Origin: Kofleriaceae bacterium
GTDB taxonomy: Bacteria > Myxococcota_A > Polyangia > Haliangiales > Haliangiaceae
DNA: 64,000 bases
Assembly (NCBI GenBank): GCA_048500355.1
Contig: JASNYD010000006.1
Location: forward strand, 352,211-416,210
Direction: 5' to 3'
Numbering within the stretch: the stretch's first letter is position 1; each line of letters begins with the position of its first letter. The notes under the pieces were generated by a model that was given only the letters and a program-made list of their open reading frames with translations, had not been told where the DNA came from and made no database searches. This document shows positions 4,933 through 49,868 of the stretch, one piece after another. Made by a program: the position numbers and the translations under genes.

Positions 4933-5400
4933 TCACATCTCGTCGAAGCGCTGCATCACGGCGGCCACGTCGGCGTTACCGGCGCAGGCTCCCAGGCCCT
5001 CGCCGACCCGGGTCATCGCCGCCTGGACGCGGTCCTTGTGCTGCTCCATGTAGGCGTCGGCCTTCCGGTCGACGTCCTCGTTGCCCTCGTACGCCTTGAC
5101 CTCGGTCAGGAGCGCCTGGTGGCTCGTGAACACGCCGTCGAGGGCCTTGGCCATGGCCGGGCAGTCGTCACCAGCCGACTCCACCGCCGCCGCCATCGCG
5201 TCGAAGAAGTCGAGGCTGCGGCCGAACAGCGCCTCGAGCTCGGCGTCGGTGGGGCCGGCGGCGGGCGCCGGCTCCGTGGGCGCGGGTGAGGCCGAGGGGC
5301 CGGGCGCGGCGCTGCCCTTGGACTTGCCGCCACAGGCGGCGAGGGCGCCGGCGGCGATGACGGCGGTGGCGAGCGCGAACGAGCGAAGGCGGTGCTGCAT
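4933..5400 (-). CDS. Hypothetical lipoprotein
   Basis: The ORF has good codon bias and a signal peptide plus lipobox (AGALAACGG). No family was recognised. Confidence 0.5.
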   Translation of the reverse strand: MQHRLRSFALATAVIAAGALAACGGKSKGSAAPGPSASPAPTEPAPAAGPTDAELEALFGRSLDFFDAMAAAVESAGDDCPAMAKALDGVFTSHQALLTEVKAYEGNEDVDRKADAYMEQHKDRVQAAMTRVGEGLGACAGNADVAAVMQRFDEM

Positions 5401-5415
5401 CCCGGGAAGGATACG

Positions 5416-6090
5416 CTAGCCGTCGAACAGCGCCCGTTCGATCACGCGCGAAAGTGCAGCCCGCGCTCGCTCGACCTCGATCGTGGGCGGCCCGTGGAGG
5501 CCGGCGACCGCGCTCGCGCACTCGACCGCCGCGGTGTAGATGACCCAGGCCGTGGCCTCGGGATCGGGCACGGCGGCGCGGGTCGCGATGCGCTCGCACA
5601 GCGCGGTCAGGCGGGCCCGCGACGCGTCGTCGAAGGCGCGGCGCAGGCGGGCGACGTCCTCGTCGCGCAGCGACATCTCGACGAAGACCCGGTGCATGCG
5701 CGGGTAGGCGGCGACGTGCTCGAGCAGGATCGCGATCGCTTCCTCGATCGTGGCGTGGCGGGCCTTGCCGACGAAGCGCTCCGGGGTGAGCTGCTCGAGG
5801 ATGCGACGGTAGCCGACGGCGAGGTTGCGCCGGCAGACCTCGAGGAAGGCCTGCTTCTTGTCGTCGAAGTAGCGGTAGAACGTGCCCACCGACACGCCGG
5901 CGCCGGCGGCGATGTCGGGGGTGCCGGTGGCGTCGTAGCCATCCTTCATGAAGGCCGCGGCCGCCGCCTCGACCAGGGCCTCGTACGTGCGCCGCGCCCG
6001 CTCCTGGGCGAAGCGGCGCGCGCGCTGATCGACCAGCAAGAGCTCGATCTGCGGCGGTGGCGGTGGACGGACCGAGGCCGGACGCCCCAT
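5416..6090 (-). CDS. TetR family transcriptional regulator
   Basis: It has the N-terminal TetR HTH (TYEALVEAAAAAFMKDGYDATGTPDIAAGAGVSVGTFYRYFDDKKQAF). The start was placed at the internal Met (MGRPASV...) so that the divergent intergenic region holds the operator. The longer ORF runs to 6132. Confidence 0.8.
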   Translation of the reverse strand: MGRPASVRPPPPPQIELLLVDQRARRFAQERARRTYEALVEAAAAAFMKDGYDATGTPDIAAGAGVSVGTFYRYFDDKKQAFLEVCRRNLAVGYRRILEQLTPERFVGKARHATIEEAIAILLEHVAAYPRMHRVFVEMSLRDEDVARLRRAFDDASRARLTALCERIATRAAVPDPEATAWVIYTAAVECASAVAGLHGPPTIEVERARAALSRVIERALFDG

Positions 6091-6130
6091 GCCCTCCAGT
6101 TTCGCCTTGACGCCCGTCAACTCCAAGTCC

Positions 6131-6146
6131 AAACTGAAATCAGTTT
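6131..6146. promoter_or_regulatory. Perfect 16-bp palindrome AAACTGAA/ATCAGTTT, candidate TetR operator
   Basis: It lies between the divergent TetR gene and the diiron-protein gene. It is 19 bp upstream of the ATG at 6165 and just upstream of a GGGAGGA ribosome-binding site. Confidence 0.5.
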
Positions 6147-6164
6147 CACTTTCCGGGAGGAGCC

Positions 6165-7220
6165 ATGGCCGCCACCGCGACCGCCGTCGACACCTCGGGC
6201 CCGTCGATCGAGACGCTCGAGACCATCCTCAACGTGACCTACACGTGGGGCTACACCGAGACCCGCGAGAAGCTGCGCGACCTCTACCAGAAGGCGAAGC
6301 ACGGCCAGTGGATCCCCGAGGACGTGCTGCCGTGGCACCTCCAGCCCGATCTGACCCTGCCGATGGGCCCGGAGAACCTGCTGCCGCTCTACGGCTCGGA
6401 CATCTACGCGAAGCTGACCCCCCAGGAGAAGCAGCAGCTCAACCTCGAGACCTCGTCGTGGACGCTGTCGCAGTTCCTGCATGGCGAGCAGGGCGCGCTC
6501 CTGGCCACGGCCCAGCTCGTCGACTCGGTGCAGGACCTCGACTCCAAGCTCTACGGCGCGACCCAGGTCGTCGACGAGGCCCGCCACGTCGACGTCTACA
6601 ACCGCTACCTGCACGAGAAGATCGGCGTGTCGTACCCGTGCAACCCGCACCTGCGCACGCTCCTCGACATGGTGCTCAAGGACTCGCGCTGGGACATGAA
6701 GTTCCTGGGCATGCAGATCATGGTCGAGGGCCTGGCCCTGGCCGCGTTCGGGATGATCCGGGCCAACACCCAGGAGCCGCTGCTGCGCGACCTGACCGCC
6801 TACGTCATGGGCGACGAGGCTCGCCACGTCGCGTTCGGCGTGCTGTCGCTGCGCGACTACTACAAGGAGCAGCCCGAGAAGGTCCGGGCCGAGCGCGAGG
6901 ACTTCGTCTACGAGGCCGCGCGCCTCATGCGCGACCGGTTCCTGTTCCAGGAGGTCTGGGAGAAGATGGGCCTGCCGGTCAAGGAGTGCATGGCCATCGC
7001 CCTCGACAACCAGGGCCAGATCCTCTTCCGCCAGCTCCTCTTCGCCAAGATCGTCCCTGCCATCAAGAAGATGGACCTGCTCTCCGACCGCCAGCGCGCC
7101 CGCTTCGCCGACCTCGGCATCCTCCAGTTCGAGCACGCCCCCGACCCGTTCGCCGACCTCGAGCGCGAGGAGGCCGACCTCAAGCGCCGCCGCCGCGACA
7201 CCGAGCAGCCGCAGGCCTGA
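6165..7220 (+). CDS. Ferritin-like diiron protein (AurF/diiron-oxygenase-like)
   Basis: It carries paired E..H / DEARH motifs (DEARHVDVY, GDEARHVAFG) typical of diiron carboxylate proteins. It is 351 aa with a good ribosome-binding site. Confidence 0.65.
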   Translation: MAATATAVDTSGPSIETLETILNVTYTWGYTETREKLRDLYQKAKHGQWIPEDVLPWHLQPDLTLPMGPENLLPLYGSDIYAKLTPQEKQQLNLETSSWTLSQFLHGEQGALLATAQLVDSVQDLDSKLYGATQVVDEARHVDVYNRYLHEKIGVSYPCNPHLRTLLDMVLKDSRWDMKFLGMQIMVEGLALAAFGMIRANTQEPLLRDLTAYVMGDEARHVAFGVLSLRDYYKEQPEKVRAEREDFVYEAARLMRDRFLFQEVWEKMGLPVKECMAIALDNQGQILFRQLLFAKIVPAIKKMDLLSDRQRARFADLGILQFEHAPDPFADLEREEADLKRRRRDTEQPQA

Positions 7221-7531: not shown

Positions 7532-8988
<1,457 letters not shown>

Positions 8989-8992
<4 letters not shown>

Positions 8993-10209
8993 GCGCCGCC
9001 TCCGGTCCGCGCCCCCCGCGGGCGCGCCGCCACCGGCCGCGCGCCGTCGGCCTCGCCGGCGCCGTCGATCGCCGGTAGCCGCACCCGCGCCACCGTGCCC
9101 CGCCCCACCGCCGACTCGAAGGTCAGCTCGCCGCCGTGCTCCTCGACGATGCGCCGGCAGATGCCGACGCCCAGCCCCGAGCCGCGCTCGCCGCGGGTGG
9201 TGAAGAACGGCTCGCCCAGGCGCGCCAGGACCTCGGGCGGCATGCCGGCGCCGCGATCGGCGACGGTCAGGATCGCGGTGTCGGGCGCCGGCGCCGTCAC
9301 CGCCACCTCGATCTCCCCGCCGTCGGGGCTGGCCAGCGCGGCGTTGTGGACGAGGTTGATCACGACCTGCGTCAGCTTGTCGTGGTGCAGGCGGCACAGC
9401 GGGTGGGCGTCGAGGCGGCGCACCAGGCGCCGCCGCCGCACCTCGCGGTCGTAGCCGATGATCGCCAGCGCCTCGTCGACGACCGCCGCCAGATCGGCGG
9501 GCTCGCGCACCAGCGGCCGGCCGTGGTCGCCGCCCGAGAAGTCGCGGATGGCGTCGACCATGGCCAGCAGGCGCTTCTGGGCGTGGACGATCACGTCGGC
9601 CAGCTCGACCAGCTCGGGGTCGCTGGCCAGCCGGCTCTTGAGGGCCTCGGCGTAGCCGACCAGCGCGAGCTGCTGGCCGAGCTCGTGGGCGATGCCGCCG
9701 ACCACGCGGCCGACCGCGGCGAGCTGCTCCGCCACCACCAGCCGCTCGGTCGCGGTGGCCAGCTCGCTCGAGGTCGAGGTCAGCGCCCGCTCGCGGTGGT
9801 CGAGCTCGCGCTCGAGCCGCGCCATCCGCCGCTCCAGGCGCGCCCGCTCGAGCGCGGCCTCGAGCCGCGGCAGGAGCTCGGCCGCCACCACCGGGCGCGC
9901 GACGTGGTGCAGCCAGCCGAACGCGGCCAGCGCCCGCTCGGTGCCGTCGGCGTCGGCGGGCGCGGTCGTGACGATCACCGGCAGGTGCGGATCGACCACG
10001 CGCAGCGCCGCCGCCAGCTCGGCGCCCTCGGCGGCGCCGCCGAGCCGGAACCCGATCACCGCGGCGTCGAAGCGGCCGGCCGCCGCCAGCGCCCGCGCCG
10101 CCGCCGCCGAGGTCGCGACCTCGACCTCGTGCGGCACCTCCTCGCCCACCACCTCGGCCACCTGCCGCGCCGCCAGCGGGTCGTCGTCGGCCACCAGGAC
10201 ACGCACCAT
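8989..10209 (-). CDS. Hybrid sensor histidine kinase (REC-HisKA-HATPase)
   Basis: It has an N-terminal receiver (VLVADDD...), an H-box (IAHELGQQL), an N-box (NLVHNA) and a G-box (GSGLGVG). Confidence 0.85.
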
Positions 10210-10378
10210 GTCCAGACTCGTATCACGAACCGTCCATGCGTCTAGACAGAGTCCACGTCCCTGGACAGATCGAGGGGTCGAATCCAATCTAACTATTCGA
10301 GATCCCTTGTCCACGATCGCGGACTCGTGCGGAACGGCAATTGCGACAGCGGGGTGACGAAGCCCAAGGAGGAGACAG

Positions 10379-17345: not shown

Positions 17346-17360
17346 GTAACGTTCCGTTAC
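17346..17360. promoter_or_regulatory. Perfect dyad GTAACG-TTC-CGTTAC (candidate enhancer-binding site)
   Basis: The inverted repeat lies ~45 bp upstream of a -24/-12 element. The same 15-mer recurs at 20707. Confidence 0.45.
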
Positions 17361-17391
17361 GTGGCGAACGGGATCTCGAGGGCTTGCGGGC

Positions 17392-17406
17392 CGGCACGGC
17401 GCTTGA
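17392..17406 (+). promoter_or_regulatory. Candidate sigma-54 promoter (GGCACG-N4-TTGA)
   Basis: It matches the TGGCACG-N4-TTGCW consensus at 10/11 informative positions with correct GG-to-GC spacing. It ends 14 bp before the ATG at 17420. Confidence 0.45.
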
Positions 17407-17419
17407 TGGATGGGGCGCC

Positions 17420-18819
<1,400 letters not shown>

Positions 18820-18823
<4 letters not shown>

Positions 18824-20709
18824 CCGGCGTGATCCTCATCCTCATCGGCTCGCTCGGCGTCGCGTTCTCGATCCTCATCCTGCGCTCGGATCCGACCCGC
18901 CACGACAACCGCGCCTTCGCCACCCTGGGGCTGCTCGACGCCACCATGGCGCTGTTCCGCGGCACCACCGCGCTCCACGGCGCCGACATCGCCGACCGCA
19001 CCGTGATGTACCCGTGCGCGCTCATGGCCCCGTTCCTGGCCTGGGCCACCCTCGAGTTCGCGTGGTCGTTCCCGTTCAACCGGCCGCTGCCGTGGCGGTG
19101 GCGGGTGCCGATCGCGGTCGCCACCCTGGCCACGCTGGTGCTGCTCGCCAGCGGCCGCTCGATCGAGCGCTCCAACCTGGCCAACGCCCTGTTCTTCGTG
19201 CCGGCGACGATCCTCATGATCGTGTGGCAGATGCGCAACCTGCGCCGGGTCGAGGGCGACCGTCTGGGCGCGCGCCTGGTGGTGGCGGCGCTGATCGTCC
19301 GCTGGATCACCGCCAACATCGTCTACGGGCTGTACAGCCGCATCGACGGCGAGCTGTGGTCGCAGCTCCTCTGGATCGAGACCACCCTCGTCGTCCTGTT
19401 CGGCTTCGTCCTCATCGGCCTGGGCTGCGTCCGCTCCAACCTGTTCACGTTCCGCAGCGCCCTGGGCGGGATCGCGCTGGAGGCGGCGTTCTTCCTCGCC
19501 GGCCTCGGCCTCACCGCCGTCGCCATGGTCGGCGCACTCGAGCTGCGCGAGCGCTTCCCCGGCCTCGGCCTCGCGCTCCTGCTCCTGGCCGCGCTCATCC
19601 CGCTGGCGGTGTTCGCGGTCACCGAGCGCCTGCGCCCGCGGCTCGAGGCCGGCGTCGATCCGCGCAAGGCCCGCAGCCACGAGCTGCTCGACCACGCCAT
19701 GGCCACCGCCACCGGCGACGTCGGCGAGCTGACCGCCACCGTCGAGCGCACCCTGGCCGCGATCAGCGACGGCGGGATCGTGCGCTTCCGCCCCGCCGCC
19801 GCGGCCGGCGACGACGAGGCCGAGCCGACCGCGCCGGCGACGTCGCGGACCGCGGCCCGCCGCGACGGCGCGACCCTGACGGTGCCGGTCCGCACCGGCG
19901 CCACCGTCCACGGCGCGCTCGAGCTCCGCGGCGGCATCCTCGATCGCGAGACCACGCTGGCCAGCGAGCGCCTCGCCGACCGCCTGGCCGCGGCCTGCGA
20001 GCTGCGCCGCCTCGCCGGCGAGCTGGAGGCGGCGAGCCGGCTGGCCGCGCTCGGGGCCTTCGCCGCCGCGATCGCGCACGACATCCGTACCCCGCTGACC
20101 AGCGTGCAGATGAACGTCCAGATGCTGCGGCGCAAGGTGGCGCTGCCCGCCGACGACATGGAGCACTTCGACATCGCGCTCGAGGAGCTGCGCCGCCTCG
20201 ACGCCCACGTCCGCGAGCTGCTCGACTACGCCAAGCCGCTCGCGCTCCACCGCGAGACCGTCGACGCCCGCGAGGTGGCCGAGGGGGCCGCCCGCACCGT
20301 CGCCCCGCTCCTGGCCGGCCGCGGTCAGCGCTTGACCTGCCGCCACGATCCCGACGTGCCGCCGATCGCGGCCGACCCCCACCGGCTGCGCCAGGTGCTG
20401 TGCAACCTGCTCGACAACGCCGCCCACGCCTCGCCGGCCGACGCCGCGATCGAGCTGGTCACGCGCCGCGACGGCGACCGGGTGGCGATCGACGTCGTCG
20501 ATCACGGCGCCGGCGTCGCCGCCGCCGACCTGACGCGCATCTTCGAGCCCTTCTTCACCACCCGCCCCGACGGCACCGGGCTCGGCCTCGCGATCTGCCA
20601 GAAGGTGGTGCGGGGCCACGGCGGCGACCTCGTCGTGCGCTCGCGCCCCGGCGACGGCGCGACCTTCACCGTGCTCCTGCCCACCGCCGCGCTGTCGACG
20701 GCGGCGTAA
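18820..20709 (+). CDS. Membrane sensor histidine kinase (multi-TM sensor + HisKA + HATPase)
   Basis: The GTG start overlaps the response-regulator stop. It has about 7 N-terminal TM helices, an H-box (IAHDIRTPL), an N-box (NLLDNAAHA) and a G-box (GTGLGLAIC). Confidence 0.85.
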
Positions 20710-20741
20710 CGTTCCGTTACCCGGGGTAGCGAAACGTTACC
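20707..20741. promoter_or_regulatory. Two tandem dyads (GTAACGTTCCGTTAC and GTAGCGAAACGTTAC) 20 bp apart, candidate enhancer
   Basis: The first dyad is the same perfect 15-mer as at 17346. It sits 60-85 bp upstream of a -24/-12 element and overlaps the kinase stop codon. Confidence 0.45.
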
Positions 20742-20793: not shown

Positions 20794-20809
20794 CGGCACG
20801 CCAGGTGCT
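20794..20809 (+). promoter_or_regulatory. Candidate sigma-54 promoter (GGCACG-N4-GTGC)
   Basis: The GG and GC dinucleotides are spaced by 12. The element ends 13 bp before the GTG at 20822. Confidence 0.4.
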
Positions 20810-20821
20810 CTACGGGAGGGC

Positions 20822-21943
20822 GTGTGGACCCTGGCCCGCAAGATCCTCCTGCACGATCGGATCAAGTTCACGGTCGCGGCGGCGGGGGTGTCGATCAGCG
20901 TGATGCTGGTGCTGGTCCAGATCGGCCTGTACCTGGGCTTCATGCAGAACGCGTCGAACCTCATCGACCACGCCACCGCCGACGTGTGGGTGACCGGGGA
21001 GGGCAGCGAGAACTTCGACTTCTCGGCGCCCATCGACGAGCGCGCCTTCTACCGCGTGGCGTCGGTCCCGGGCGTGGCCCACGCCGAGCGCATGCTGCTC
21101 GCCTTCGGCCAGTTCCGGCTCGCCGACGGCGGCACCCAGGGCGTACAGGTGGTGGGGCTCGAGCCCGGCGGCCGCCTGCTGCGGCCGTGGAACGTCGTCG
21201 CCGGCGATCCGGCGCACATCCACCAGGCCGGCGCCATCATGGTCGACGTCACCGAGGCGGCCAAGCTCAAGCTCGACCGCGTCGGCGAGCGCCGCGAGAT
21301 CTTCGGCGTCCGCGCCGAGGTCGTCGGCCTGACCCGCGGCATCCGCAGCTTCACGACCTCGCCCTTCGTGTGGACCGACCTCGACAGCGCGCGCGCCTAC
21401 GCCCTCTACCCGGCCGAGCGCTTCAACTACGTCCTGGTCGAGGCCGCGCCCGGCGTCGACCCCGGAGACCTGGCCCGCCGCCTCGACCAGCTCCCCGGCC
21501 TCGACGCCTACACCGGACCGACGATGTCGGCGCGGGCCCGCCACTACTGGTCGTCGCGCACCGGCGTCGGCGCCGGCTTCTTCACCACCGCCGCGCTCGG
21601 CGTGATCGTCGGCCTCGTCGTCGTCGGCCAGATCCTCTACAACGGCACGCTCGAGCACCTGAAGGAGTACGGCACGCTCAAGGCCATGGGCGCCCGCGAC
21701 GGCGCCATCCTGCGCGTGATCGTCTACCAGGCGCTGATCTCGGCCGCGGTCGGCCTGGTGCTGGGCGGCGGCCTGGCCCTGGCGGCGCGGGCGGCGATGG
21801 CCGGCGCCAACCTCAACGTGCTGCTCACCCGCGACCTGGTGATCGTCACCGCGATCCTGACCGCGGTGATGTGCTGCCTGGCCTCGCTCCTGTCCGTCAT
21901 CAAGGTCCTGCGCCTCGATCCGGCCTCGGTCTTCAAGGGCTGA
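20822..21943 (+). CDS. ABC transporter permease (FtsX/DevC-like)
   Basis: It has an N-terminal TM helix, a large periplasmic loop and 3 C-terminal TM helices typical of FtsX/MacB-type permeases. The GTG start was chosen downstream of the promoter-like element. The ORF finder extends to a TTG at 20777. Confidence 0.75.
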   Translation: MWTLARKILLHDRIKFTVAAAGVSISVMLVLVQIGLYLGFMQNASNLIDHATADVWVTGEGSENFDFSAPIDERAFYRVASVPGVAHAERMLLAFGQFRLADGGTQGVQVVGLEPGGRLLRPWNVVAGDPAHIHQAGAIMVDVTEAAKLKLDRVGERREIFGVRAEVVGLTRGIRSFTTSPFVWTDLDSARAYALYPAERFNYVLVEAAPGVDPGDLARRLDQLPGLDAYTGPTMSARARHYWSSRTGVGAGFFTTAALGVIVGLVVVGQILYNGTLEHLKEYGTLKAMGARDGAILRVIVYQALISAAVGLVLGGGLALAARAAMAGANLNVLLTRDLVIVTAILTAVMCCLASLLSVIKVLRLDPASVFKG

Positions 21944-22002: not shown

Positions 22003-22716
22003 ATGACCGAGCGCACCCCCATCGCCAGCCTGGCCGGCGTCTCCAAGATCTACGGCGCCGGCGAGACCCAGGTGAACGCCCTCGAGGGCGCCGACCTGTC
22101 GGTGTACCCCGGCGAGATCCTCCTCATCGAGGGGCCGTCGGGCTCGGGCAAGACCACGCTCATCTCGATCCTCGGCTTGCTCCTGCGTCCGACCTCGGGC
22201 GACGTGTTCGTGCGCGGCCAGCGGGTGACCGGCCTCGCCCAGCGCGAGCTGCCGTCGATCCGCGCCGGCACCTTCGGCTTCATCTTCCAGGGCTTCAACC
22301 TGTTCCCGGCGCTCACCGCCGAGGAGAACGTCGCGATCGCCATCAAGATGAAGGACCCGCGCGCGCGCGACGCCGACGCCGAGGCCCGACGGCTGCTCAC
22401 CGCGGTCGGGCTCGACAACCGCATGCACCACAAGCCCGGCGACCTGTCGGGCGGCCAGAAGCAGCGGGTCGCGATCGCCCGCGCCCTCGGCGGGAACCCG
22501 CCCATCATCATCGGCGACGAACCGACCGCCGCCCTCGACACCCGGACCGCGCTCGGCGTGATGGCGCTCCTGCGCGAGCTGGCCTCGATCCAGGGCCGCG
22601 CCGTCGTCGTCGTCACCCACGACCCCCGGCTCGAGCGCTTCGCCGACCGGGTGGCGCGCGTCGAGGACGGCCGGGTCACCGCCGTCGACACCATCGATCA
22701 CAGCCGCGCCGCGTGA
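22003..22716 (+). CDS. ABC transporter ATP-binding protein
   Basis: It has Walker A (GPSGSGKTT), the LSGGQKQRVAIARAL signature, Walker B (IIIGDEPTAALD) and an H-loop (VTHD). Confidence 0.9.
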   Translation: MTERTPIASLAGVSKIYGAGETQVNALEGADLSVYPGEILLIEGPSGSGKTTLISILGLLLRPTSGDVFVRGQRVTGLAQRELPSIRAGTFGFIFQGFNLFPALTAEENVAIAIKMKDPRARDADAEARRLLTAVGLDNRMHHKPGDLSGGQKQRVAIARALGGNPPIIIGDEPTAALDTRTALGVMALLRELASIQGRAVVVVTHDPRLERFADRVARVEDGRVTAVDTIDHSRAA

Positions 22717-23867
22717 GCGGCGCCTGCCCCCCGGAGGTCCCCGTGTCCACCCTCAGCGATCCCACCTCGTCCTCGCCCCCGCGCCGGTCGCGCGCCCTCG
22801 CCCGCCGCACCACCCTCGGCGCCGCGCTCCTGCTCGCCGCCGCCGCCGTCGCCGGCGTGGCGTGGTCGCGCTCCCCGGCGCCCGCCCAGCCCGCCGCCAC
22901 CGGCGGCGCGGCCGCCCCGTCGGCCCCGATCGCGGCCCTGGTCGCCCCGGGCCTGGTCGAGGCCCGCGGCAACCGCGTCGAGCTCGGCTTCGAGGCCAGC
23001 GGCCGCATCGCCGAGCTGCTGGTCGAGGAGGGCGACGCCATCGCCGCCGGCCAGCTCCTGGGCCGCCTCGACGACCGGATCGCGCGGGCCCGGGTGGCGC
23101 GCGCCGAGGCCGCGGTCGAGATGGCCGCCGCCCGCCTGCAGGCGACGCGGCGCGGAGCGCGGCGCGACGAGGTCCGCGCCGCGGCCGCCGAGGCCGACGC
23201 CGCGGCGGCCGCCGCCCGCGAGCGCGGCCTCGTCCGCGACCGCGCCGAGGCGCTGCTGGCGTCCCACCCCGACGCCATCCCCCTGGCCGAGGTCGACGCC
23301 GCCCGCGGCCAGGCCGACGCCAGCGCCGCCACCGCGCGCGCCGCCGGGGCCCGCGTCGCGCTCCTGCGCTCCGGCTCGCGCGCCGAGGTGATCGCCGAGG
23401 CCCGCGCCGCCCACGCCGCCGCCCTGGCCGAGCTCGAGGAGGCCCGCGCCCACCTCGCCCACCACGAGCTGCGCGCGCCGCGCGCCGGCGTCGCGCTCCG
23501 CCGCCTGCACGAGACCGGCGAGCACGTCACGACGATGCCGCCGACCACGGTCCTCGTCCTCGCCGACACCACCCACCTCGAGCTGCGGGTCGAGGTCGAC
23601 GAGGCCGACGTCGGCCGGGTCGCGGTCGGGCAGCCGGCGTGGGCCACGGCGCTGGCCTACGGTGACCGTCGCTTCACCGGTCGGGTCACCCGCGTCGTCG
23701 GCGAGCTCGGCCGCAAGAGCCCGCGCCTCGACGACCCGCGCGCCCGCATCGACACCCGCGTGCTCGAGGTGGTGGTCGCGCTCGACGACGCGCCGGCCTT
23801 GCCGCTCGGGCTGCGCATGGACGTCCACCTCGCGCCCACCGGCCCCCGCCCGGACGGCGCGCGATGA
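22713..23867 (+). CDS. HlyD-family membrane fusion/periplasmic adaptor protein
   Basis: It has a signal anchor, Ala-rich coiled-coil repeats and the beta-barrel/lipoyl segments typical of HlyD/MFP proteins. The GTG start overlaps the ATPase stop. Confidence 0.7.
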   Translation: MSGACPPEVPVSTLSDPTSSSPPRRSRALARRTTLGAALLLAAAAVAGVAWSRSPAPAQPAATGGAAAPSAPIAALVAPGLVEARGNRVELGFEASGRIAELLVEEGDAIAAGQLLGRLDDRIARARVARAEAAVEMAAARLQATRRGARRDEVRAAAAEADAAAAAARERGLVRDRAEALLASHPDAIPLAEVDAARGQADASAATARAAGARVALLRSGSRAEVIAEARAAHAAALAELEEARAHLAHHELRAPRAGVALRRLHETGEHVTTMPPTTVLVLADTTHLELRVEVDEADVGRVAVGQPAWATALAYGDRRFTGRVTRVVGELGRKSPRLDDPRARIDTRVLEVVVALDDAPALPLGLRMDVHLAPTGPRPDGAR

Positions 23868-25411
23868 CCGCCGGCCGCCGGCGCGGCGCGGCGCGGCGGT
23901 CGCGGCCGCGGTGGGTGACGCTCGGGCTCGCGCTCGTCGCCGCGACCGCGACCGCGACGGCGCCGGCGCTCGGCCCCGCCCTGGCCCAGGGCTCGCCCGA
24001 CGCCGGCGACCGCGCCGCCGACACCCGCGCCATCGGGCTGGCCGAGGCCCAGGCCCTCGCCCGCGCCCGCAACGACGCGCGCGCCGCCGAGGCCGCGGCC
24101 GCCGCGCGCGCCGCCGCGATGGTCGGCGCCGCCGACGGCGTCGACGACCTGATCGTCGAGGCCGCGGTCGAGGGCGTGCGCCGCACCGCCGAGCCCACCG
24201 CCGGGCCGTTCTTCCAGGAGACCGACCTCGACGCCCTCACCGTGCGCGCCGCGGTGTGGAAGCCGCTGCCGTGGGGCGGCCGCGTCGGCGTGCAGGTCCG
24301 CGACGGCGTCAGCCGGACCCAGGCGCTGGTCGCCGCGGGCGGGCCGCCCGCCGAGCTCGCGTACACGGTGCACGGCCCGCGCGCCGAGCTGGTCTGGCAG
24401 CAGCCGCTCCTGCGCGGCCGCGGTCGCGCCGCCCACGACGGCCCGCGCCGGGTGGCCCGGGCCGAGGCCGACGCCGCCCGCGCCAGCCTCGACCTCGCCG
24501 ACACCCGGCTCGCCCTCGACGTCGCCCGCGCCTACTGGGAGCTGGCCTACGCCGCGCGCGAGCTCGCGATCCGGCAGAGCGCGCTCGACCTCGCCGGCGA
24601 GCAGCTCGCGATCACCCGGGCCCGGGTCGGCGCCGGCCGCGGCGCCGAGCTCGAGGTGCTCGCGGTGGAGCAAGCGATCGCCGCGCGCGAGGCGGCGCTG
24701 GTCGGCGCGCGCCTCGAGCTGTCGGCGCGCGCCCTCGAGCTGCGGGTGCTGCTCGCCCTCGAGGACGGCGATCCGCGGCCGCTGGCCGCCACCGATCCGC
24801 TGGACGCCCCGACCTCGCCGCCGCCCGCGCCGGCGGCGGCGCTGGCCCGCGCCCTGGCCTTCTCGCCCGAGCTGCGCGCGATCGACCACCAGGCCCGCGC
24901 CGCCGGCGCCCAGCTCGACGCGGCGGCCCGCGCCCGCGGCCCCGGCCTCGACCTCGTCGTCCGTGGCGGCCCCGCCGGCAACGCCGCCGATCAGGCCGAG
25001 GCCTGGGGGCAGCTCGCGCGCGCCGACGGCTTCGAGGCTGCCGCCGCGCTGTCCTTCACCCTGCCGGTCGGCGATCGCGCCGGCCGCGGCCAGCACGAGG
25101 CGGCGCGCCTCGCCCGCCGCGAGCTGGCGCACCGGCGCGAGGCCCGACGCGGTCGCCTCACCGCCGAGGTGGCGCGCGCGGTCGACGCCGTGACCCTGTC
25201 GGAGCGCCGGATCGCCGCCGCGGCGCGGGCGGCCGAGCTGGCCGAGCGCAACGTCGCCCTCGAGCTCGATCGCTGGCGCACCGGGCTCGGCACCAACTTC
25301 GACGTGCTGACCCGCCAGGACCAGGCCGCCGCCGCCGCCGCCGCGCTGGCCCGCGCCCACGCCGACCGCCAGCTCGCGGTGGCGGCGCTCGTCGCCCTGA
25401 CCGGACCGTGA
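23864..25411 (+). CDS. TolC-family outer-membrane efflux protein
   Basis: It has a signal peptide and two long helix/coiled-coil repeats (LDLADTRLALDVARAYWEL...). It is 515 aa and its ATG overlaps the HlyD stop. Confidence 0.7.
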   Translation: MTAGRRRGAARRSRPRWVTLGLALVAATATATAPALGPALAQGSPDAGDRAADTRAIGLAEAQALARARNDARAAEAAAAARAAAMVGAADGVDDLIVEAAVEGVRRTAEPTAGPFFQETDLDALTVRAAVWKPLPWGGRVGVQVRDGVSRTQALVAAGGPPAELAYTVHGPRAELVWQQPLLRGRGRAAHDGPRRVARAEADAARASLDLADTRLALDVARAYWELAYAARELAIRQSALDLAGEQLAITRARVGAGRGAELEVLAVEQAIAAREAALVGARLELSARALELRVLLALEDGDPRPLAATDPLDAPTSPPPAPAAALARALAFSPELRAIDHQARAAGAQLDAAARARGPGLDLVVRGGPAGNAADQAEAWGQLARADGFEAAAALSFTLPVGDRAGRGQHEAARLARRELAHRREARRGRLTAEVARAVDAVTLSERRIAAAARAAELAERNVALELDRWRTGLGTNFDVLTRQDQAAAAAAALARAHADRQLAVAALVALTGP

Positions 25412-35530: not shown

Positions 35531-35645
35531 GCGCGCCCCGGCCAGCCCCGTGGCCGGTGTCGCCGCTGGCGACAGGCCGGCGCACGCGAGTCCGCGGACT
35601 TGCGCGCGCCCGCGTCCGGCCCGGGCGTTGCTGAGCAGGGACCCA

Positions 35646-36463
35646 TGCGCCGGTCCCGTCACCTGTCGCTCGTCGCCTGGCTCCTGGCCGCCCTCCTGGC
35701 CGGATGCGCCGTGGAGGGTGAGCGCCCCGACCCCGGCGAGGTCGCCGGCGCGGACCCGGCGCTCGACGGCCCCGATGGGCCAGGCGACGGCTCCGACGAC
35801 GGCACCGACGGCGCGAGCGGCGGCAAGGACGACAGCGCCCTCACCCTGCCGCTGCGCTTCCTGCCCGGCGAGCTCGTCGTGCCGAGCGCGGCGATCCAGC
35901 ACGAGGTGCGCAAGGTCTTCCGCAGCGCGGCCGCGCTCGAGGCGGCGCTCGGCATCCCCAACCCCGGCATCGACTTCTCGCGCGAGTGGGCCGTGTTCTA
36001 CACGCCGGGCATGGCGCGCCCCGATCTGCTGCCCGGCTTCTGGGCGCGCATCGACACCGTGCGGGTCTCGTCGACCGGGCTGACGATCATGGTCACGACC
36101 TCGCTCGAGCAGAACGGCGCCTGCGCGGCGCGCCGCTCGCGACCGTTCCTCCTCGTCGCGGTGCCGCGGCCCGAGACCCCGCCGCCCTACACCCGCTTCT
36201 ACCGCGCCGACCGCACGCGCGCGTGCCCGGGCGGCGTCACGTATCACGACGGCGTGCCGTTCACCCCCGCCGAGGAGGCCGCCGCGCTGCGCGCCGCCAA
36301 CCTCGCGACCCCGGGCGAGCTCCACGCCGCCGGCATCACCGGGGCCCAGGCCTCGATCGTCACCGGCGGCCGCACCTGGTCCCGCCTCGCCGCGGTCGCG
36401 GGCACCGCCGGCATCGGGAGCGCGACCATGACCAAGCTGCGCGCCCTGGGCGCGTCGTTCTAG
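35646..36463 (+). CDS. Lipoprotein with C-terminal helix-hairpin-helix (ComEA-like) DNA-binding motif
   Basis: It has a lipobox (LLAGCA). The C-terminus has ATPGELHAAGITGAQASIVTGG...AGIGSATMTKL (HhH pairs). Confidence 0.5.
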
Positions 36464-36629
36464 CGGCTCGACCGGGTCCTCGCGCCGGCGCGGACGTCAG
36501 CGGCCGAGGTGCGCCGGTGCGGGAGGTGGGTGCACGGGCGTCCGCGGCGCCGTGTCCGGCCCGCCGCCGCGGGCGTGTCGCCGCGCCCACGCCCGCACCC
36601 AAGCCCTCGATCCGCGCCGGCTTTCCGGC

Positions 36630-36645
36630 TGGCACCGGCGGTGCA
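36630..36645 (+). promoter_or_regulatory. Candidate sigma-54 promoter (TGGCACC-N4-GTGCA)
   Basis: It is a near-consensus -24/-12 element with correct spacing. It ends 14 bp before the ATG at 36659. Confidence 0.45.
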
Positions 36646-36658
36646 CAGGAACCCCGGC

Positions 36659-37768
36659 ATGAGGAAGCTCCCGTTCGTCCTGTTCGCCGCGCTCCTGGCC
36701 GTGGCCGCGACGCAGGCCGCCGCCACGCCCCCGCCGCCGTCGGGCCGCCTGACGCTGGTGGCCGGCGAGCGCGAGCCTGCCGGCGCTCGCGCCGCGGTGA
36801 CCGCCGACGAGCTCGGGCGACTCGAGCAGGCGGTGACGGCGCAGCCCCGCGATCGCGCCGCCCGCTTCGCGCTGGTGCGCGCGCTCCACCGCGCCGGCAA
36901 GCTCGACGAGGCGGTGGCGGCGGCGCGGGCGTGGCGGGCGGTCGACGCCTACAACCTCGTGGTCGTCCGCATGCTGGGCGACCTCTACAGCGAGCGCGGG
37001 CAGCGCGATCAGGCCCGCCGCGCCTACTCGGCGGTGGTCGAGCTCCTGCCCGGCGACGTCGGCGCCCAGCGCGCGCTGGCGAGCGCCCTCAAGCAGGCCG
37101 GCGATCTCGAGGCCGCCCACCAGCGCCTGAGCGCGGCGGCGGCGGCGGCGCCCGGCGATCGCCGCCTCGCCTTCGAGCTGGCCGACGTCGCCCAGCGCCT
37201 CGGCCGCACCGCCGAGGCGCGCGCCGGGCTCGAGGCCCTCGTCGCCGACACCGCCGTGCCCGAGTCGGTGCGGTACCCGGCCCGCCAGCGCCTGGCGCAG
37301 GTCTACCACGCGATCGCGCGCGACCAGCCGGGCGAGGCCGCCGCCATGCGCCGCGCCATCGCCGGCCTCGGCCTCGCCGGCGGCAGCGAGAACGACATCA
37401 AGATCTTCCTCACCTGGGACACCGATCGCAGCGACGTCGACCTGTGGGTGACCAACCCCAGCGGCGAGCGCGTGAGCTACCAGCGCAAGCAGGGCTCGTT
37501 CGGCGACGCCCTCTACGACGACGTCACCACCGGCTACGGCCCCGAGAGCTACACCGCGCCCCGGGCCCAGCCCGGCGCGTACGTGGTGCAGGTCAACTAC
37601 TACCGCGCCGGCAGCGGCAACCTCTCCGAGGCCCGCGGCGAGGTCGTGGTCGTGCTCGACGAGGGCAAGCCGACCGAGCAGCGTCACGTCCTGCCCTACC
37701 GCCTGTTCGACAAGGGCGACACCGTCACCGTCGCGCGCATCGACGTGCGCGCTGGAGGCTCGCGATGA
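36659..37768 (+). CDS. Secreted TPR-repeat protein with C-terminal DUF2135-like domain
   Basis: It has a signal peptide and Ala-rich TPR-like helices. The C-terminal ~110 aa (IFLTWDTDRSDVDLWVTNPSGE...YVVQVNYY) resemble the domain usually fused C-terminal to VIT+vWA proteins (family assigned from memory). Confidence 0.55.
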   Translation: MRKLPFVLFAALLAVAATQAAATPPPPSGRLTLVAGEREPAGARAAVTADELGRLEQAVTAQPRDRAARFALVRALHRAGKLDEAVAAARAWRAVDAYNLVVVRMLGDLYSERGQRDQARRAYSAVVELLPGDVGAQRALASALKQAGDLEAAHQRLSAAAAAAPGDRRLAFELADVAQRLGRTAEARAGLEALVADTAVPESVRYPARQRLAQVYHAIARDQPGEAAAMRRAIAGLGLAGGSENDIKIFLTWDTDRSDVDLWVTNPSGERVSYQRKQGSFGDALYDDVTTGYGPESYTAPRAQPGAYVVQVNYYRAGSGNLSEARGEVVVVLDEGKPTEQRHVLPYRLFDKGDTVTVARIDVRAGGSR

Positions 37769-46639: not shown

Positions 46640-48918
46640 TCAGCGCTTGCGCCGCAGCTTGACGTCGACCTTGTGGCCGTCGCGATCGGGATAGACGCGC
46701 TGGGTGGCGGTCAGGCCGCGGCGGGCGAGGACGAGCGACGTGGTCTCGAAGCCGGGGAGCGCGATCGTCGCCGGCGTCTTGCCGACCACGACGTCGCCGA
46801 TGGTCACCGTCGCGCCCGACGGCCGCGACGTCACCTTCACCTCGAAGACCGGCCGCTCGAGCCGCACCTCGAGCGCGGCCGCCCCCGCCGCGACCTGGCG
46901 GGTGACCGGCTGGTAGCGGTCGCGCCGGAACGTGACCTCGTAGGGCGTGCACGGGCCGTCGTAGGTGAACGGGGTCTCGCCGAGGATCTGGCCGTCGCGC
47001 ACGACCTGCACCGCCTCGGGGCTCGACGACAGCGCCACCGCGCAGGTGCCGGAGGCGGGCGGGGGTGAGGCGCCGGGCGCGATCGGGGGCGGCTCCGGCG
47101 GCGACTCGACCGCTGGCGGCGGGGTCGTGGCCGCGGCCGGCTCCACCGCGCCGCCCGGCGCGCCGGCGCGCGGCGATCCGCCGGGCGCGGCGGGGGCCGA
47201 CGCGCCGCTCGCCGCCGGCGCGGCGCTGGCCGCGGGCGGACGGCCCGCGGCGCCGCCATCACCGCCGCCGCCGCGCGCGGCGATGACGACCATGACCGCC
47301 ACGCCGATCACGATGAGGCCGGAGGTGACCGCGATGACCGGCCAGCGCCGGCGCGCCGCCGGGCCGCCGAGCTGGATCATCTCGGTCATGTCGTCGTCGC
47401 GATCGACGAGCTCGGGCGCCGACCACGCCGGAGCCGCCGATGACGGGTAGGGCCTCGGGTAGTACGGCGCGCCAGCCGCGACCGGCGCCATCGCGGCTGC
47501 GGGCGGCGGCGCCATCGCCGCCATGGGCGGCGGCGCCATCGCCGCCACGGGCGGCGGCGCCATCGACGCCACGGGCGGCGGCGCCATCGCGGCCACGGGC
47601 GGCGGCGCCATCGCCGCCACGGGCGGCGGCGCCATCGCCGCCACGGGCGGCGGCGCCATCGCCGCCATGGGCGGCGGCGCCATCGCCGCCACGGGCGGCG
47701 GCGCCATCGACCATCCCGGCGACGACGCCGGCGGCGGCGGCGACGGCGGGACGACGATCGGCACGGCCCGCGGCGGGAGCGTGGTCGGCAGCGGCTCCGT
47801 CGCGTCCGCGGAGCCGACCTCCGCGACCGCCTCGGGCAGCGCGACGACCACGTCGGTCGGGAGGTCGTCGCCGACGACGGTGACGGTGGGGACGATCGGC
47901 GCGGCCTCCACCGGACCCGACGGGACCGCGCTCATGCCGGCGGGCGCCGCGGTCGGCACCGTCGGGCCGAGGTCGAGCGCGCCCGGCGCGCCGTGCGAGG
48001 TCGACGCCGCCGCGGCGATCGCGTGCATCACCGCGCCGCGCGTCGGCTGGGTCGGACCGGTCTCGTGCTCGACGCCGTGGCGCGGCACCGGCACGCTGTC
48101 GGTGGGCACCCCCGGCGGCGTCCCCGCCGCCACGACCGCCGACGAGGACGCGCCGCGCGTCGGCGTCGACCGGGCCGGCGTCGAGCTCGCGGGCGCCGCC
48201 CCGGTCCCACCTGGACGCGGTCGCGCGGGCGCCGGCATCGCGGCCGGCGCGCCCGCCACCGACGGTGGGGCCGGACCCACGACCGGGATGCCCATGAGGG
48301 TGCGCTGCTGCTCGCGGCGCGCGCGGCCGTCCGCCGTCATCGGGGCCGCGCCGGCGCCCACCGCGGCGCCAGGGACCGGAACGGGGAGCGGCGCCTGCCG
48401 GATCGTCGGCGGCGCCGGCTCGCGCGCGGAGCCGGGCATGCGCACGGTGGCGAGGTCGGGCCGCGCCGCGCCGGCGGGCGCCATCGCCTCGACCGCGCAG
48501 GTCGCCGCCGCGGCGTCGACCGCGCCGCCCTGGGCGACGCCGATCGCGGCCCCCAGCGGCACGAGGTGGCGCGGCACCGCCGGCGGCACCGCCGCCGCGG
48601 CGTGCTCCACCATGTGAGCGAGCAGGCCCTTGCCGCGGGCGTCGAGGCGGAGGTAGCGCACGTCGATCGTCGCGCCGGCCGGCGCGCCGGCCGCCCCCGC
48701 CGTCGCGCCCCCCACGCTCACCTCGGCCTCGCCATCGAGCACCGCCACCCGCGACGCGAGGGTCACCACGACCCGCCCGCGCCCGCTCGCCACGGGCGCA
48801 CCCGTGACCGGGATCGCGGTCAGGCCCTCGGGCCCGGCCAGGGTGCGGAACACCCGGATCAGGTCCTCGACCGTCGCGCACCGGCTGACCAGGCGCCACG
48901 CGGTTCCGTTCGCCACGA
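46640..48918 (-). CDS. Pro/Ala-rich membrane protein with C-terminal PEGA domains and internal (MAPPPVAA)n repeats
   Basis: It has a TM helix (WPVIAVTSGLIVIGVAVMVVIAA) and two C-terminal PEGA-like modules. The start is uncertain (a GTG near 48918 is proposed). The longest ORF reaches 49201 and overlaps the divergent gene. Confidence 0.55.
47483..47710. repeat. In-frame 24-bp tandem repeat (~9.5 copies) encoding MAPPPVAA
   Basis: The unit is GGCGGCGGCGCCATCGCCGCCACG on the top strand and it lies inside the coding sequence. Confidence 0.8.
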
Positions 48919-49088
48919 GGATCGAGTGTAGGCAATTCCGGCGGGTGTAACCAGGCAGAAGCGCAAACCTCGGGTCACGCCCCGTGGCCGGCGGTTGACG
49001 CTCGCGCCGCCGGCGGCCCGGAGGCGTGGGGAAGGTCCACAACCGGTCCGGCCTTCGCCTGGCACCCACCTTGCGAGGTCCCCCGACC

Positions 49089-49868
49089 ATGCGGACCCGA
49101 ACCATCGTCGCCTCGCTCACCCTGTGTGCCCTCCCCCTCCTGGCCGGCGCCCGCGGCGACGGGTGCGCGGCGAGCTCGCGCTCGCCCGCCCCCGACGTCA
49201 CCGGCTGGTGGGACGTGACCTACGACGACGCCCTGAGCGTCGAGATCATCGTGGGCGGCTCGGTGTACACCGCCGAGACCGGCGCCCAGGGCGGCGCGAT
49301 CACGATCACCCACCAGGGGCGCCCGCTCACGTTCGACCTCGCCTGCGCGCGGCCCGAGGTCGTGTGCCCGAGCGAGGCCTGGCCGCGCGCGATCTTCGCC
49401 GAGCAGCGCGACGCCGGCTTCGAGCACCGCATGTACGTCACGCTGCCGGTGCAGACCTGCGCCGGCGCCCGGCGCGCCCCGGCGCCCGGCACCTGCGGGG
49501 CCGGCACCGCCAACCCCGAGTGCGACGACGTGTGCGACGGCGAGCTCGTCTCCCGCGACGAGGAGCGCTTCGGCGTGATCGGCGAGAGCGGACGGACGTT
49601 CCGCCTCTACCTCGGCGCCGGCGTCGCCACCAACGGCATCAACTGCGCGCTGCTCGGCTGGTCGGTCGCCGACGCCGAGCTCGACACCGTCGGCAGCGCC
49701 GCCGGCGGCGACTGGGAGGCGGTGGCGATGGACGCCGGCATGGTCACCGTCGGCTACTCCGGCGGCTGCCTGTGGGCCGGCGATCCGGACCTGGACGGCG
49801 AGCTCGAGGCCCTGATCCTGGGCGCCACCGTCAAGCTCACGACCGGCTTCACCGCCGATCGGCGCTAG
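49089..49868 (+). CDS. Hypothetical secreted Cys-rich protein
   Basis: It has a signal peptide and at least 10 Cys residues. Confidence 0.5.
   Translation: MRTRTIVASLTLCALPLLAGARGDGCAASSRSPAPDVTGWWDVTYDDALSVEIIVGGSVYTAETGAQGGAITITHQGRPLTFDLACARPEVVCPSEAWPRAIFAEQRDAGFEHRMYVTLPVQTCAGARRAPAPGTCGAGTANPECDDVCDGELVSRDEERFGVIGESGRTFRLYLGAGVATNGINCALLGWSVADAELDTVGSAAGGDWEAVAMDAGMVTVGYSGGCLWAGDPDLDGELEALILGATVKLTTGFTADRR

Follow-up and report, generated by a model that had tools for sequence, protein, structure and literature searches.

The window, that is, the whole 64-kb stretch of DNA analysed here (G+C 75.9%), contains a two-component regulator-kinase gene pair followed on the same strand by the genes of a tripartite ABC exporter. 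In front of each gene group lie a short dyad-symmetric sequence and a sigma-54-type promoter element. The features of the locus are as follows.

17346..17360, no strand: putative upstream activator site, a single perfect dyad GTAACG-TTC-CGTTAC, GTAACGTTCCGTTAC; centre 53 bp upstream of the -12; kept in orthologues
17393..17406, + strand: sigma-54-type element GGCACG-GCGC-TTGA, GGCACGGCGCTTGA; GG at 17393-94, non-consensus GA at -13/-12
17420..18823, + strand: response-regulator enhancer-binding protein; ATG 14 nt after the -12, without a Shine-Dalgarno sequence; receiver, AAA+ with GAFTGA, HTH_8
18820..20709, + strand: polytopic membrane histidine kinase (HisKA and HATPase_c); GTG start overlapping the regulator stop (GTGA)
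20706..20720, no strand: putative distal activator site, the identical 15-mer GTAACGTTCCGTTAC; overlaps the kinase TAA stop
20726..20740, no strand: putative proximal activator site GTAGCGAAACGTTAC; one mismatch, 20 bp from the distal site
20795..20808, + strand: sigma-54 element GGCACG-CCAG-GTGC, GGCACGCCAGGTGC; conserved in 19 orthologous loci
20822..21943, + strand: DevC/MacB-type ABC permease; GTG start 14 nt after the -12 C
22003..22716, + strand: ABC ATPase, an internal gene; GGAG Shine-Dalgarno sequence 6 nt before the ATG
22713..23867, + strand: HlyD/DevB-type membrane-fusion protein; GTGA overlap with the ATPase gene
23864..25411, + strand: TolC-like outer-membrane efflux protein; ATGA overlap with the preceding HlyD/DevB-type gene

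The regulator is a protein of 467 aa with a receiver domain (PF00072, residues 4-111, E = 5e-26), a sigma-54 interaction domain (PF00158, Sigma54_activat, E = 2e-67), a Walker A motif GESGTGK at residue 168, a GAFTGA loop at residue 215 and a Fis-type helix-turn-helix (PF02954, HTH_8, residues 411-450). It is a complete, bona fide NtrC-class enhancer-binding protein of the response-regulator class. Its best NCBIfam scores are against the AtoC, NtrC and ZraR models, all of them below the equivalog cut-offs (450 bits versus 714, 419 versus 559 and 365 versus 760, respectively), and the regulator is therefore not an orthologue of AtoC, NtrC or ZraR. The kinase has 629 aa and about seven hydrophobic segments in its N-terminus. 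The coupling of the two genes proposed in the first-pass annotation is borne out by the GTGA at 18820-18823, in which the regulator stop overlaps the kinase start. No rpoN gene is present in the 64-kb window, but the two enhancer-binding-protein genes within it imply that the organism has one. The upstream neighbour of the regulator is a panE-like gene, whose stop codon lies 32 nt before the dyad.

All parts of a tripartite exporter are encoded in the downstream operon, namely a permease with MacB_PCD and FtsX domains, an ABC ATPase, an HlyD adaptor and an outer-membrane factor. The permease scores below the DevC equivalog cut-off (124 bits versus 290). Its GTG start is supported by an ATG at the equivalent codon in the orthologous loci L002 and L096 and is also fixed by the conserved N-terminus (M/V)WTLARKILL. 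A GGGAGG in front of the GTG at 20822 was considered as a conserved ribosome-binding site and rejected, as it lies 2 nt from the start and is missing in L002, L003 and L004.

The first-pass annotation had read the region upstream of the regulator gene as an autoregulatory sigma-54 promoter abutting the start codon. The perfect 15-bp dyad (6+3+6) that it described is found at 17346-17360. The promoter element does lie downstream of the dyad, although the gap to its GG is 32 bp instead of the ~35 bp given, and the element occupies 17393-17406, with 17392 being the C that precedes the GG. The regulator ATG at 17420 was placed correctly; 13 nt separate it from the element, which makes 14 nt from the -12 to the start. 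Calling this element near-consensus was an overstatement. Measured against the sigma-54 criterion of GG at -24/-25 and GC at -12/-13, 10 nt apart, the regulator promoter has the GG but carries GA in place of the GC. In the exporter promoter (20795-20808), GG at -24 and GC at -12 are both present, and this is the better element of the two. The recurrence of the dyad in front of the exporter had been overlooked in the earlier annotation. Between 16800 and 21200, no sigma-70-type promoter was found, and no intrinsic terminator either, including the interval between the panE-like gene and the regulator; Rfam gave no match anywhere in the window.

With up to two mismatches allowed, the dyad has three matches in the window against 0.55 expected, and all three sit at the two promoters flanking the two-component operon, twice as the exact 15-mer and once as the one-mismatch copy. 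The dyad is far above chance. The pattern GGCACGN4KTGM, in contrast, has two matches in the window against 1.4 expected, i.e. the -24/-12 string by itself occurs at chance frequency, and the case for the promoters therefore rests on position and conservation. The regulator promoter has one dyad only, centred at about -65; most characterised activator sites are farther from the promoter than that.

We turned to orthologous loci. Scanning reference genomes with the regulator returned mostly paralogues and four orthologous loci (L001-L004), all from Kofleriaceae-like Myxococcota, with regulator identities of 99, 82, 80 and 68%. A metagenome scan with the permease gave about 19 further orthologous loci (63-89% identity) and ~45 distant homologues; the orthologous loci are phylogenetically related, and their counts are not counts of independent events. 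Dyads are present at 19 of 19 orthologous exporter promoters that have a sigma-54 element, together with CGGCACG-N4-(G/C)TGC(T). Two dyads spaced 17-25 bp apart occur in 18 of these promoters, and the remaining one, in L096, has a single dyad. Across loci L081-L146, the dyad (at most one mismatch) turned up solely in loci of this exporter gene family, and at the same threshold it is absent from the about 45 loci with distant permease homologues. Every copy but two belongs to one of the two promoters; the two exceptions, in L098 and L128, precede a sigma-54-like promoter that lies ahead of an inserted lipoprotein gene. In a set of 41 site copies, hardly any variation is seen at the twelve half-site positions, in contrast to the variable 3-bp spacer. 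When nine regulator upstream regions were aligned, the sole invariant columns fell within the dyad half-sites, GGCACG and the -13 G. The -12 of this promoter is non-consensus in 9 of 10 orthologues (TTGA, TTGT or GTGA).

Measured from the -12, dyad centres are found at 53, 63/64 or 74 bp at regulator promoters and near 64, 74-78, 85, 95 or 105 bp at most exporter promoters, so that the dyad shifts by ~10.5 bp per step, equal to one helical turn. Such helical phasing is as would be expected for an enhancer-binding protein facing the sigma-54 polymerase. At the regulator promoters of L004 and L096, the two most distant orthologues, the dyads are degenerate, and autoregulation may therefore not be universal. 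From its positions and conservation, the dyad is the predicted shared operator of a two-operon regulon comprising the regulator-kinase pair and the tripartite ABC exporter.

We also compared the distance from the -12 to the start codon across orthologues. At the 19 exporter promoters it is 14 nt in ten cases, 15 nt in six, and 16, 17 and 18 nt in one each; the intervening sequence is variable and contains no conserved Shine-Dalgarno sequence, and its changes in length break the reading frame. At the regulator promoters, the distance is 14 nt in the window's own locus (W), L001, L004 and L096, and 17 nt in L002 and L081, giving 6 of 10 at 14-17 nt. Here the difference between 14 and 17 nt keeps the reading frame, which counts against the overall reading of the locus. 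The other four regulator genes have longer leaders (23, 35, 36 and 37 nt), all with GGAG(G) 4-5 nt before the start. Even so, a start codon still lies at 14-17 nt in three of these four: in L003 and L088 it is an ATG opening a 7-codon ORF (MPRAGGP or MPRAGAP) whose TGA overlaps the regulator ATG, and in L086 it is an in-frame GTG. Altogether, a start codon follows the -12 by 14-17 nt in 9 of 10 regulator orthologues. The inserted lipoprotein gene in front of the permease in L098 and L128 has its ATG 26 and 28 nt from the sigma-54 element and carries AGGAGG or GGGAGG 6-7 nt before the ATG. Over the regulator, exporter and inserted-lipoprotein promoters, a Shine-Dalgarno sequence is thus seen only at distances of at least 23 nt, and those of the long leaders all begin at least 14 nt after the -12, inside the predicted transcript. 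Of all the sequence evidence, this either/or pattern speaks most strongly for a transcription start just past the -12 box. Taking a transcription start at most 5 nt from the start codon as the criterion for leaderless, we infer that the short-distance mRNAs are leaderless. In C. jejuni, start-site mapping found transcription to begin 8-13 nt downstream from the GGaa-N6-tTGCTt motif (PMC3847290), and a start codon that follows the -12 C by 14-15 nt would accordingly coincide with the far end of this range or lie just beyond it.

On these comparative grounds, we consider it likely that an NtrC-type two-component regulon, in a Kofleriaceae-like Myxococcota metagenome-assembled genome of 76% G+C, has its control region at 17346-17420 and that its sigma-54 promoters give leaderless mRNAs. 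The regulator probably switches on its own operon and the neighbouring efflux-pump operon. In the proposed mechanism, the phosphorylated enhancer-binding protein (17420-18823) would bind the dyad GTAACG-N3-CGTTAC. The one dyad before the regulator-kinase operon, on the promoter-facing side of the helix, would confer positive autoregulation from a deliberately weak -12, and the two dyads ~20 bp apart would serve the DevC-type permease, ATPase, HlyD and TolC operon. At both places, the dyad-bound protein would remodel sigma-54 RNA polymerase at GGCACG-N4-KTGM, transcription would start 11-14 nt after the -12, at or within ~3 nt of the start codon, and both mRNAs would be leaderless and translated without a Shine-Dalgarno sequence. 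Each part of the first-pass reading holds up in the comparative tests; binding of the regulator to the dyad, autoregulation, RpoN dependence and the position of the transcription start are predictions for this locus.

Several other explanations were weighed against this reading. The one that survives best, although we regard it as unlikely, is that the sigma-54-like element of the regulator is non-functional, that the regulator is expressed by read-through from the panE-like gene or from an unrecognised promoter, and that the dyad is an operator of another kind, e.g. for autorepression. The GA at the -12, the chance-level count of the -24/-12 pattern and the lack of a detectable terminator between the upstream gene and the regulator agree with this, and a single dyad close to the promoter would suit a repressor site; M. 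xanthus PexR, an enhancer-binding protein doubling as a repressor, provides a precedent (PMC12754779). Yet GGCACG and the -13 G are invariant over nine orthologues in intergenic DNA that has otherwise diverged, the distance between dyad and promoter changes by helical turns, and the start codon keeps its 14-17 nt in 9 of 10 orthologues. The gene upstream of the regulator also varies among orthologues, and no promoter of the sigma-70 type was found.

It is less probable still that the dyads act as RNA or DNA hairpins that terminate transcription or stabilise 3' ends behind the upstream gene and the kinase gene. Both dyad locations do follow stop codons, 32 nt after that of the panE-like gene and overlapping the kinase TAA, and the tandem pair can form a hairpin of -27.7 kcal/mol (z = -2.67). 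A single dyad, however, folds no better than shuffled sequence (z = 0.04), and neither a T-tract nor a terminator match was found. The spacers of distal and proximal copies tend to complementarity (33 of 51 positions), but copies of one palindrome are complementary to each other by default, and the half-sites show invariance in place of covariation. Moreover, the offset between the two dyads is variable (17-25 bp), and the dyads co-occur with sigma-54 elements at phased distances. We keep a secondary 3' role at low confidence.

Last, it is very improbable that the regulator starts at the upstream in-frame TTG (17384), with the 'promoter' being coding sequence for the N-terminal extension LRAGTALDGWGA: such a TTG is in frame in W, L001, L002 and L081, an in-frame TTG being situated 12-13 codons upstream in several orthologues, and the difference between 14 and 17 nt is frame-preserving, but the third-position G+C in high-G+C orthologues is 0.67-0.80 against 0.88-1.00 in the gene (an argument that excludes L096, which shows no such contrast at 0.73 versus 0.68), no in-frame start exists upstream of the gene in L004 and L088, L003 and L088 read the conserved DNA in different frames, exporter promoters have this same element in clearly non-coding DNA past a stop codon, and the receiver profile begins at residue 4 of the product from the ATG at 17420. 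The N-terminal extension was rejected on its third-position G+C and on its being absent or out of frame in several orthologues.

Returning to the reading of sigma-54 promoters that adjoin start codons, we examined how far the arrangement extends within the window. Sites were scored by a simple consensus match, at least 10 of 12 positions of TGGCACG-N4-TTGCW, which is not a calibrated weight matrix. Seven window sites reach this threshold, and five of the seven (17392, 20794, 35617, 36630 and 49060) have a start codon at +14 or +15, compared with a background of about 3% of weaker sites at these offsets. The start codons at the five sites open long ORFs with high third-position G+C. The same geometry had been reported previously at 20794 and 36630; both cases are real, and those at 35617 and 49060 are additional. 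The three sites outside the regulon are the following.

35617..35647, + strand: sigma-54-like element CGGCCCGGGCGTTGCT; ATG of a lipoprotein gene (35645) 14 nt after the -12
36630..36661, + strand: sigma-54 element TGGCACCGGCGGTGCA; ATG (36659) of a secreted TPR/DUF2135 protein 15 nt after the -12
49060..49091, + strand: sigma-54 element TGGCACCCACCTTGCG; ATG (49089) of a 259-aa secreted protein 15 nt after the -12

The gene starts at these three sites encode signal peptides or a lipobox. At the TPR/DUF2135 promoter, a distance of 14-16 nt is kept in four orthologous loci (65-78% identity), and 14 nt are found for the L147 orthologue of the 259-aa secreted protein. In addition, the first T of a TANNNT motif lies 12-13 nt before the start codon of at least ten genes in the window, and the motif is nearly missing at other offsets within 40 nt of start codons. 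This placement suggests that sigma-70-type leaderless transcription is common in the organism and that the sigma-54 promoters obey the same rule. Judged by these spacings, the predicted leaderless geometry is a genome-wide habit and not peculiar to the regulator promoter. Outside this organism, sigma-54-like elements 14-17 nt before plausible starts are also found in Chthoniobacteraceae (including a flgB-like gene), Opitutales, Bdellovibrionales, another unclassified 'delta proteobacterium' and another Kofleriaceae genome. Our judgement is evenly balanced on the broader proposal that promoters of this kind, in which AUG or GUG follows the -12 C of a sigma-54 element by 14-17 nt, make up a systematic and hitherto undescribed class of leaderless transcription unit. 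Such a class would be kept across Kofleriaceae-like Myxococcota and would occur also in Verrucomicrobiota (including the flgB-like gene), Bdellovibrionota and other sigma-54-bearing phyla, and an inserted leader would be compensated by a Shine-Dalgarno sequence or by a leaderless upstream ORF of 7 codons that is translationally coupled to the gene through ATGA.

The organisation of the locus follows well-known systems in most respects. With the enterobacterial NtrC-family systems NtrB/NtrC-glnAp2, ZraSR and AtoSC it shares a regulator with receiver, AAA+ (GAFTGA) and Fis-type HTH domains encoded beside its kinase, a -24/-12 promoter preceded by dyad activator sites, and positive autoregulation from a sigma-54 promoter, which for the present locus is a prediction. 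The locus differs from NtrC, ZraSR and AtoSC in its recognition sequence GTAACG-N3-CGTTAC, in the single site at ~-65 and the -12 GA of the autoregulated promoter, and in a start codon 14 nt after the -12; the glnA, zraP and ato mRNAs have ordinary leaders. The exporter shares its permease (MacB_PCD, FtsX), ABC ATPase, HlyD/DevB adaptor and outer-membrane factor with DevBCA-TolC and MacAB-TolC but differs from them in gene order, which here is permease, ATPase, adaptor and outer-membrane factor. Two-component control through sigma-54 is not the textbook arrangement for such pumps.

The closest relative within the phylum is PexR of M. xanthus, for which tandem interrupted palindromes CACCG-N6-CGGTG are activator sites upstream of sigma-54 promoters validated by 5'-RACE, and for which a leaderless pexR mRNA (at most 5 nt) from a sigma-A promoter has been proposed (PMC12754779). 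Tandem palindromic activator sites are thus common to both systems, whereas PexR differs in that its leaderless transcript comes from sigma-A and not from sigma-54, in not being a response regulator and in its targets, ahpC and katB. Leaderless genes with a -10 box adjoining the ORF have been described in Deinococcus-Thermus (PMC12340547). The leaderless genes of Deinococcus-Thermus and Actinobacteria resemble those proposed here in having a promoter element at a fixed short distance from the start without a Shine-Dalgarno sequence, and they differ in that the adjoining element here is a sigma-54 -12 box, which needs an ATP-driven activator. To our knowledge, Actinobacteria and Deinococcus-Thermus lack sigma-54. 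A full-text search of the literature, with subscription journals outside its scope, found no description of sigma-54-driven leaderless mRNAs, and earlier reports may exist; the transcription-start-mapping papers that it found treat leaderless mRNAs and sigma-54 separately. The locus would therefore be an ordinary enhancer-binding-protein regulon in an apparently undescribed leaderless sigma-54 layout.

Sigma-54 promoters are the one bacterial class that stays silent until an ATPase activator opens the DNA, and leaderless mRNAs are translated by direct binding of the 70S ribosome to the 5' start codon. Should this pairing prove routine, the sole point of control ahead of translation would belong to the activator, and no 5' UTR would be left in which regulation could act. 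For this hitherto uncharacterised two-component system, the analysis defines a predicted recognition sequence, GTAACG-N3-CGTTAC, and a predicted two-operon regulon. The weak -12 at the autoregulated promoter, set against the consensus GC at the target promoter, offers a testable hint on basal expression in an autoregulated sigma-54 circuit. The system occurs in Myxococcota from soil and sludge, where it is predicted to control a tripartite ABC exporter. The -12 box may also allow start codons to be predicted precisely in these high-G+C genomes, in which starts are often miscalled: in L149, a gene was called at 5190, and the sigma-54 element together with the signal peptide indicates a start at 5280.

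Besides the regulator and exporter promoters with their predicted leaderless layout, the window has three more sigma-54-like promoters, each 14-15 nt before the start codon of a gene for a secreted protein or lipoprotein:

35617-35647, sigma-54-like promoter
36630-36661, sigma-54-like promoter
49060-49091, sigma-54-like promoter

For two of the three, a spacing of 14-16 nt is kept in orthologues; the orthologous sites compared were L147:1820, L148:9971, L149:9971, L150:9972 and L147 at about 10425, all in related loci from other genomes or metagenomes. Upstream of 36630, direct repeats of CGTGTC (36551-36556 and 36574-36579) and a CCACGC (36587-36592) are likewise conserved in orthologues, and these elements may be binding sites of a different activator. 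The regulator is not the only enhancer-binding protein of the response-regulator class in the window; a second one (GAFTGA, HTH_8) adjoins a hybrid histidine kinase:

7532-9397 and 8989-10314, both minus strand, second enhancer-binding protein and adjoining hybrid histidine kinase

A sigma-54-like match at 8439 on the minus strand falls within the gene of this enhancer-binding protein and is probably spurious.

Beyond the window, good sigma-54 consensus matches were found 14-17 nt before plausible gene starts in loci from Verrucomicrobiota, Bdellovibrionota, another unclassified 'delta proteobacterium' genome and another Kofleriaceae genome:

L049:1212, 7986 and 8550, sigma-54 match
L065:7571 and 3452 (minus strand), sigma-54 match
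L064:4207, sigma-54 match
L071:1506, sigma-54 match
L073:9141 (minus strand), sigma-54 match

The plausible starts are those of signal peptides and of a flgB-like gene. The placement of a sigma-54 element close to the start codon may be a widespread layout. In the related locus L149, the gene called at 5190-6419 contains a sigma-54 element at 5249, inside the called gene, and a signal-peptide start (MMSKLMILASCLALS) lies 17 nt after the -12 position of that element, which together suggest that the true start is 5280 rather than 5190. This gene is an example of a probably miscalled start that the promoter-to-start distance rule could correct.

Short promoter-to-start distances also occur with -10-like TANNNT motifs, which precede the following gene starts in the window (each position is that of the gene start):

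5400, minus strand, TANNNT
10965, plus strand, TANNNT
25482, plus strand, TANNNT
27997, plus strand, TANNNT
30258, minus strand, TANNNT
31921, minus strand, TANNNT
46528, minus strand, TANNNT
48916, minus strand, TANNNT
56322, minus strand, TANNNT
56568, plus strand, TANNNT
58199, plus strand, TANNNT

The first T lies 12-13 nt from the ATG or GTG (14 nt at 48916), and the motif is nearly missing from other offsets up to 40 nt before those start codons, which open long ORFs of high third-position G+C. Judged from these sequence patterns, this Myxococcota genome seems to use sigma-70-type leaderless mRNAs as a major mode; a literature search found no paper documenting such a mode for Myxococcota.

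In the regulator promoter, the stretch that separates the dyad from the -24 element contains a conserved block, GGATCTCG-N5-8-TTG(C/G)G (17372-17389), with aligned counterparts in L003, L081, L086 and L088; the block matches neither the dyad nor an IHF consensus. In addition, two of these loci carry a 7-codon upstream ORF, MPRAGGP or MPRAGAP:

L003:5981-6004, 7-codon upstream ORF
L088:1609-1632, 7-codon upstream ORF

The start of this ORF lies 16-17 nt downstream of -12, and its TGA overlaps the regulator ATG (ATGA). The ORF may be leaderless, with its translation coupled to that of the regulator.

At the exporter promoter, the tandem dyads (20706-20740) can pair mutually in a computed fold, forming a hairpin of -27.7 kcal/mol at the kinase gene's 3' end. 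The spacer in orthologues usually reads xTx in the distal site and xAx in the proximal site, a pattern that would reflect either sites inverted relative to each other or a hairpin with a secondary RNA role. A palindrome, AAGTGC-N3-CGCGATCGCG(CGG), is conserved between the dyads and the -24 in one orthologue clade (exporter promoters of L003, L083, L084, L087 and L088), is absent from the window, and may be a site for another factor. In the permease orthologue L095 (L095:1-64), the sigma-54 element is replaced by a sigma-70-type TTGACT-N18-TAGTAT ending 9 nt before the permease ATG, a reading that covers 61 nt upstream, with dyads possible farther upstream; as predicted from this stretch, the promoter class is switched with near-leaderless spacing retained. 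In two further loci, a small lipoprotein gene has been inserted after the sigma-54 promoter and ahead of the permease:

L128:3584-3700, inserted lipoprotein gene
L098:728-830, inserted lipoprotein gene

Both inserted genes have a leader of 26-28 nt and a canonical GGAGG 6-7 nt before the ATG.
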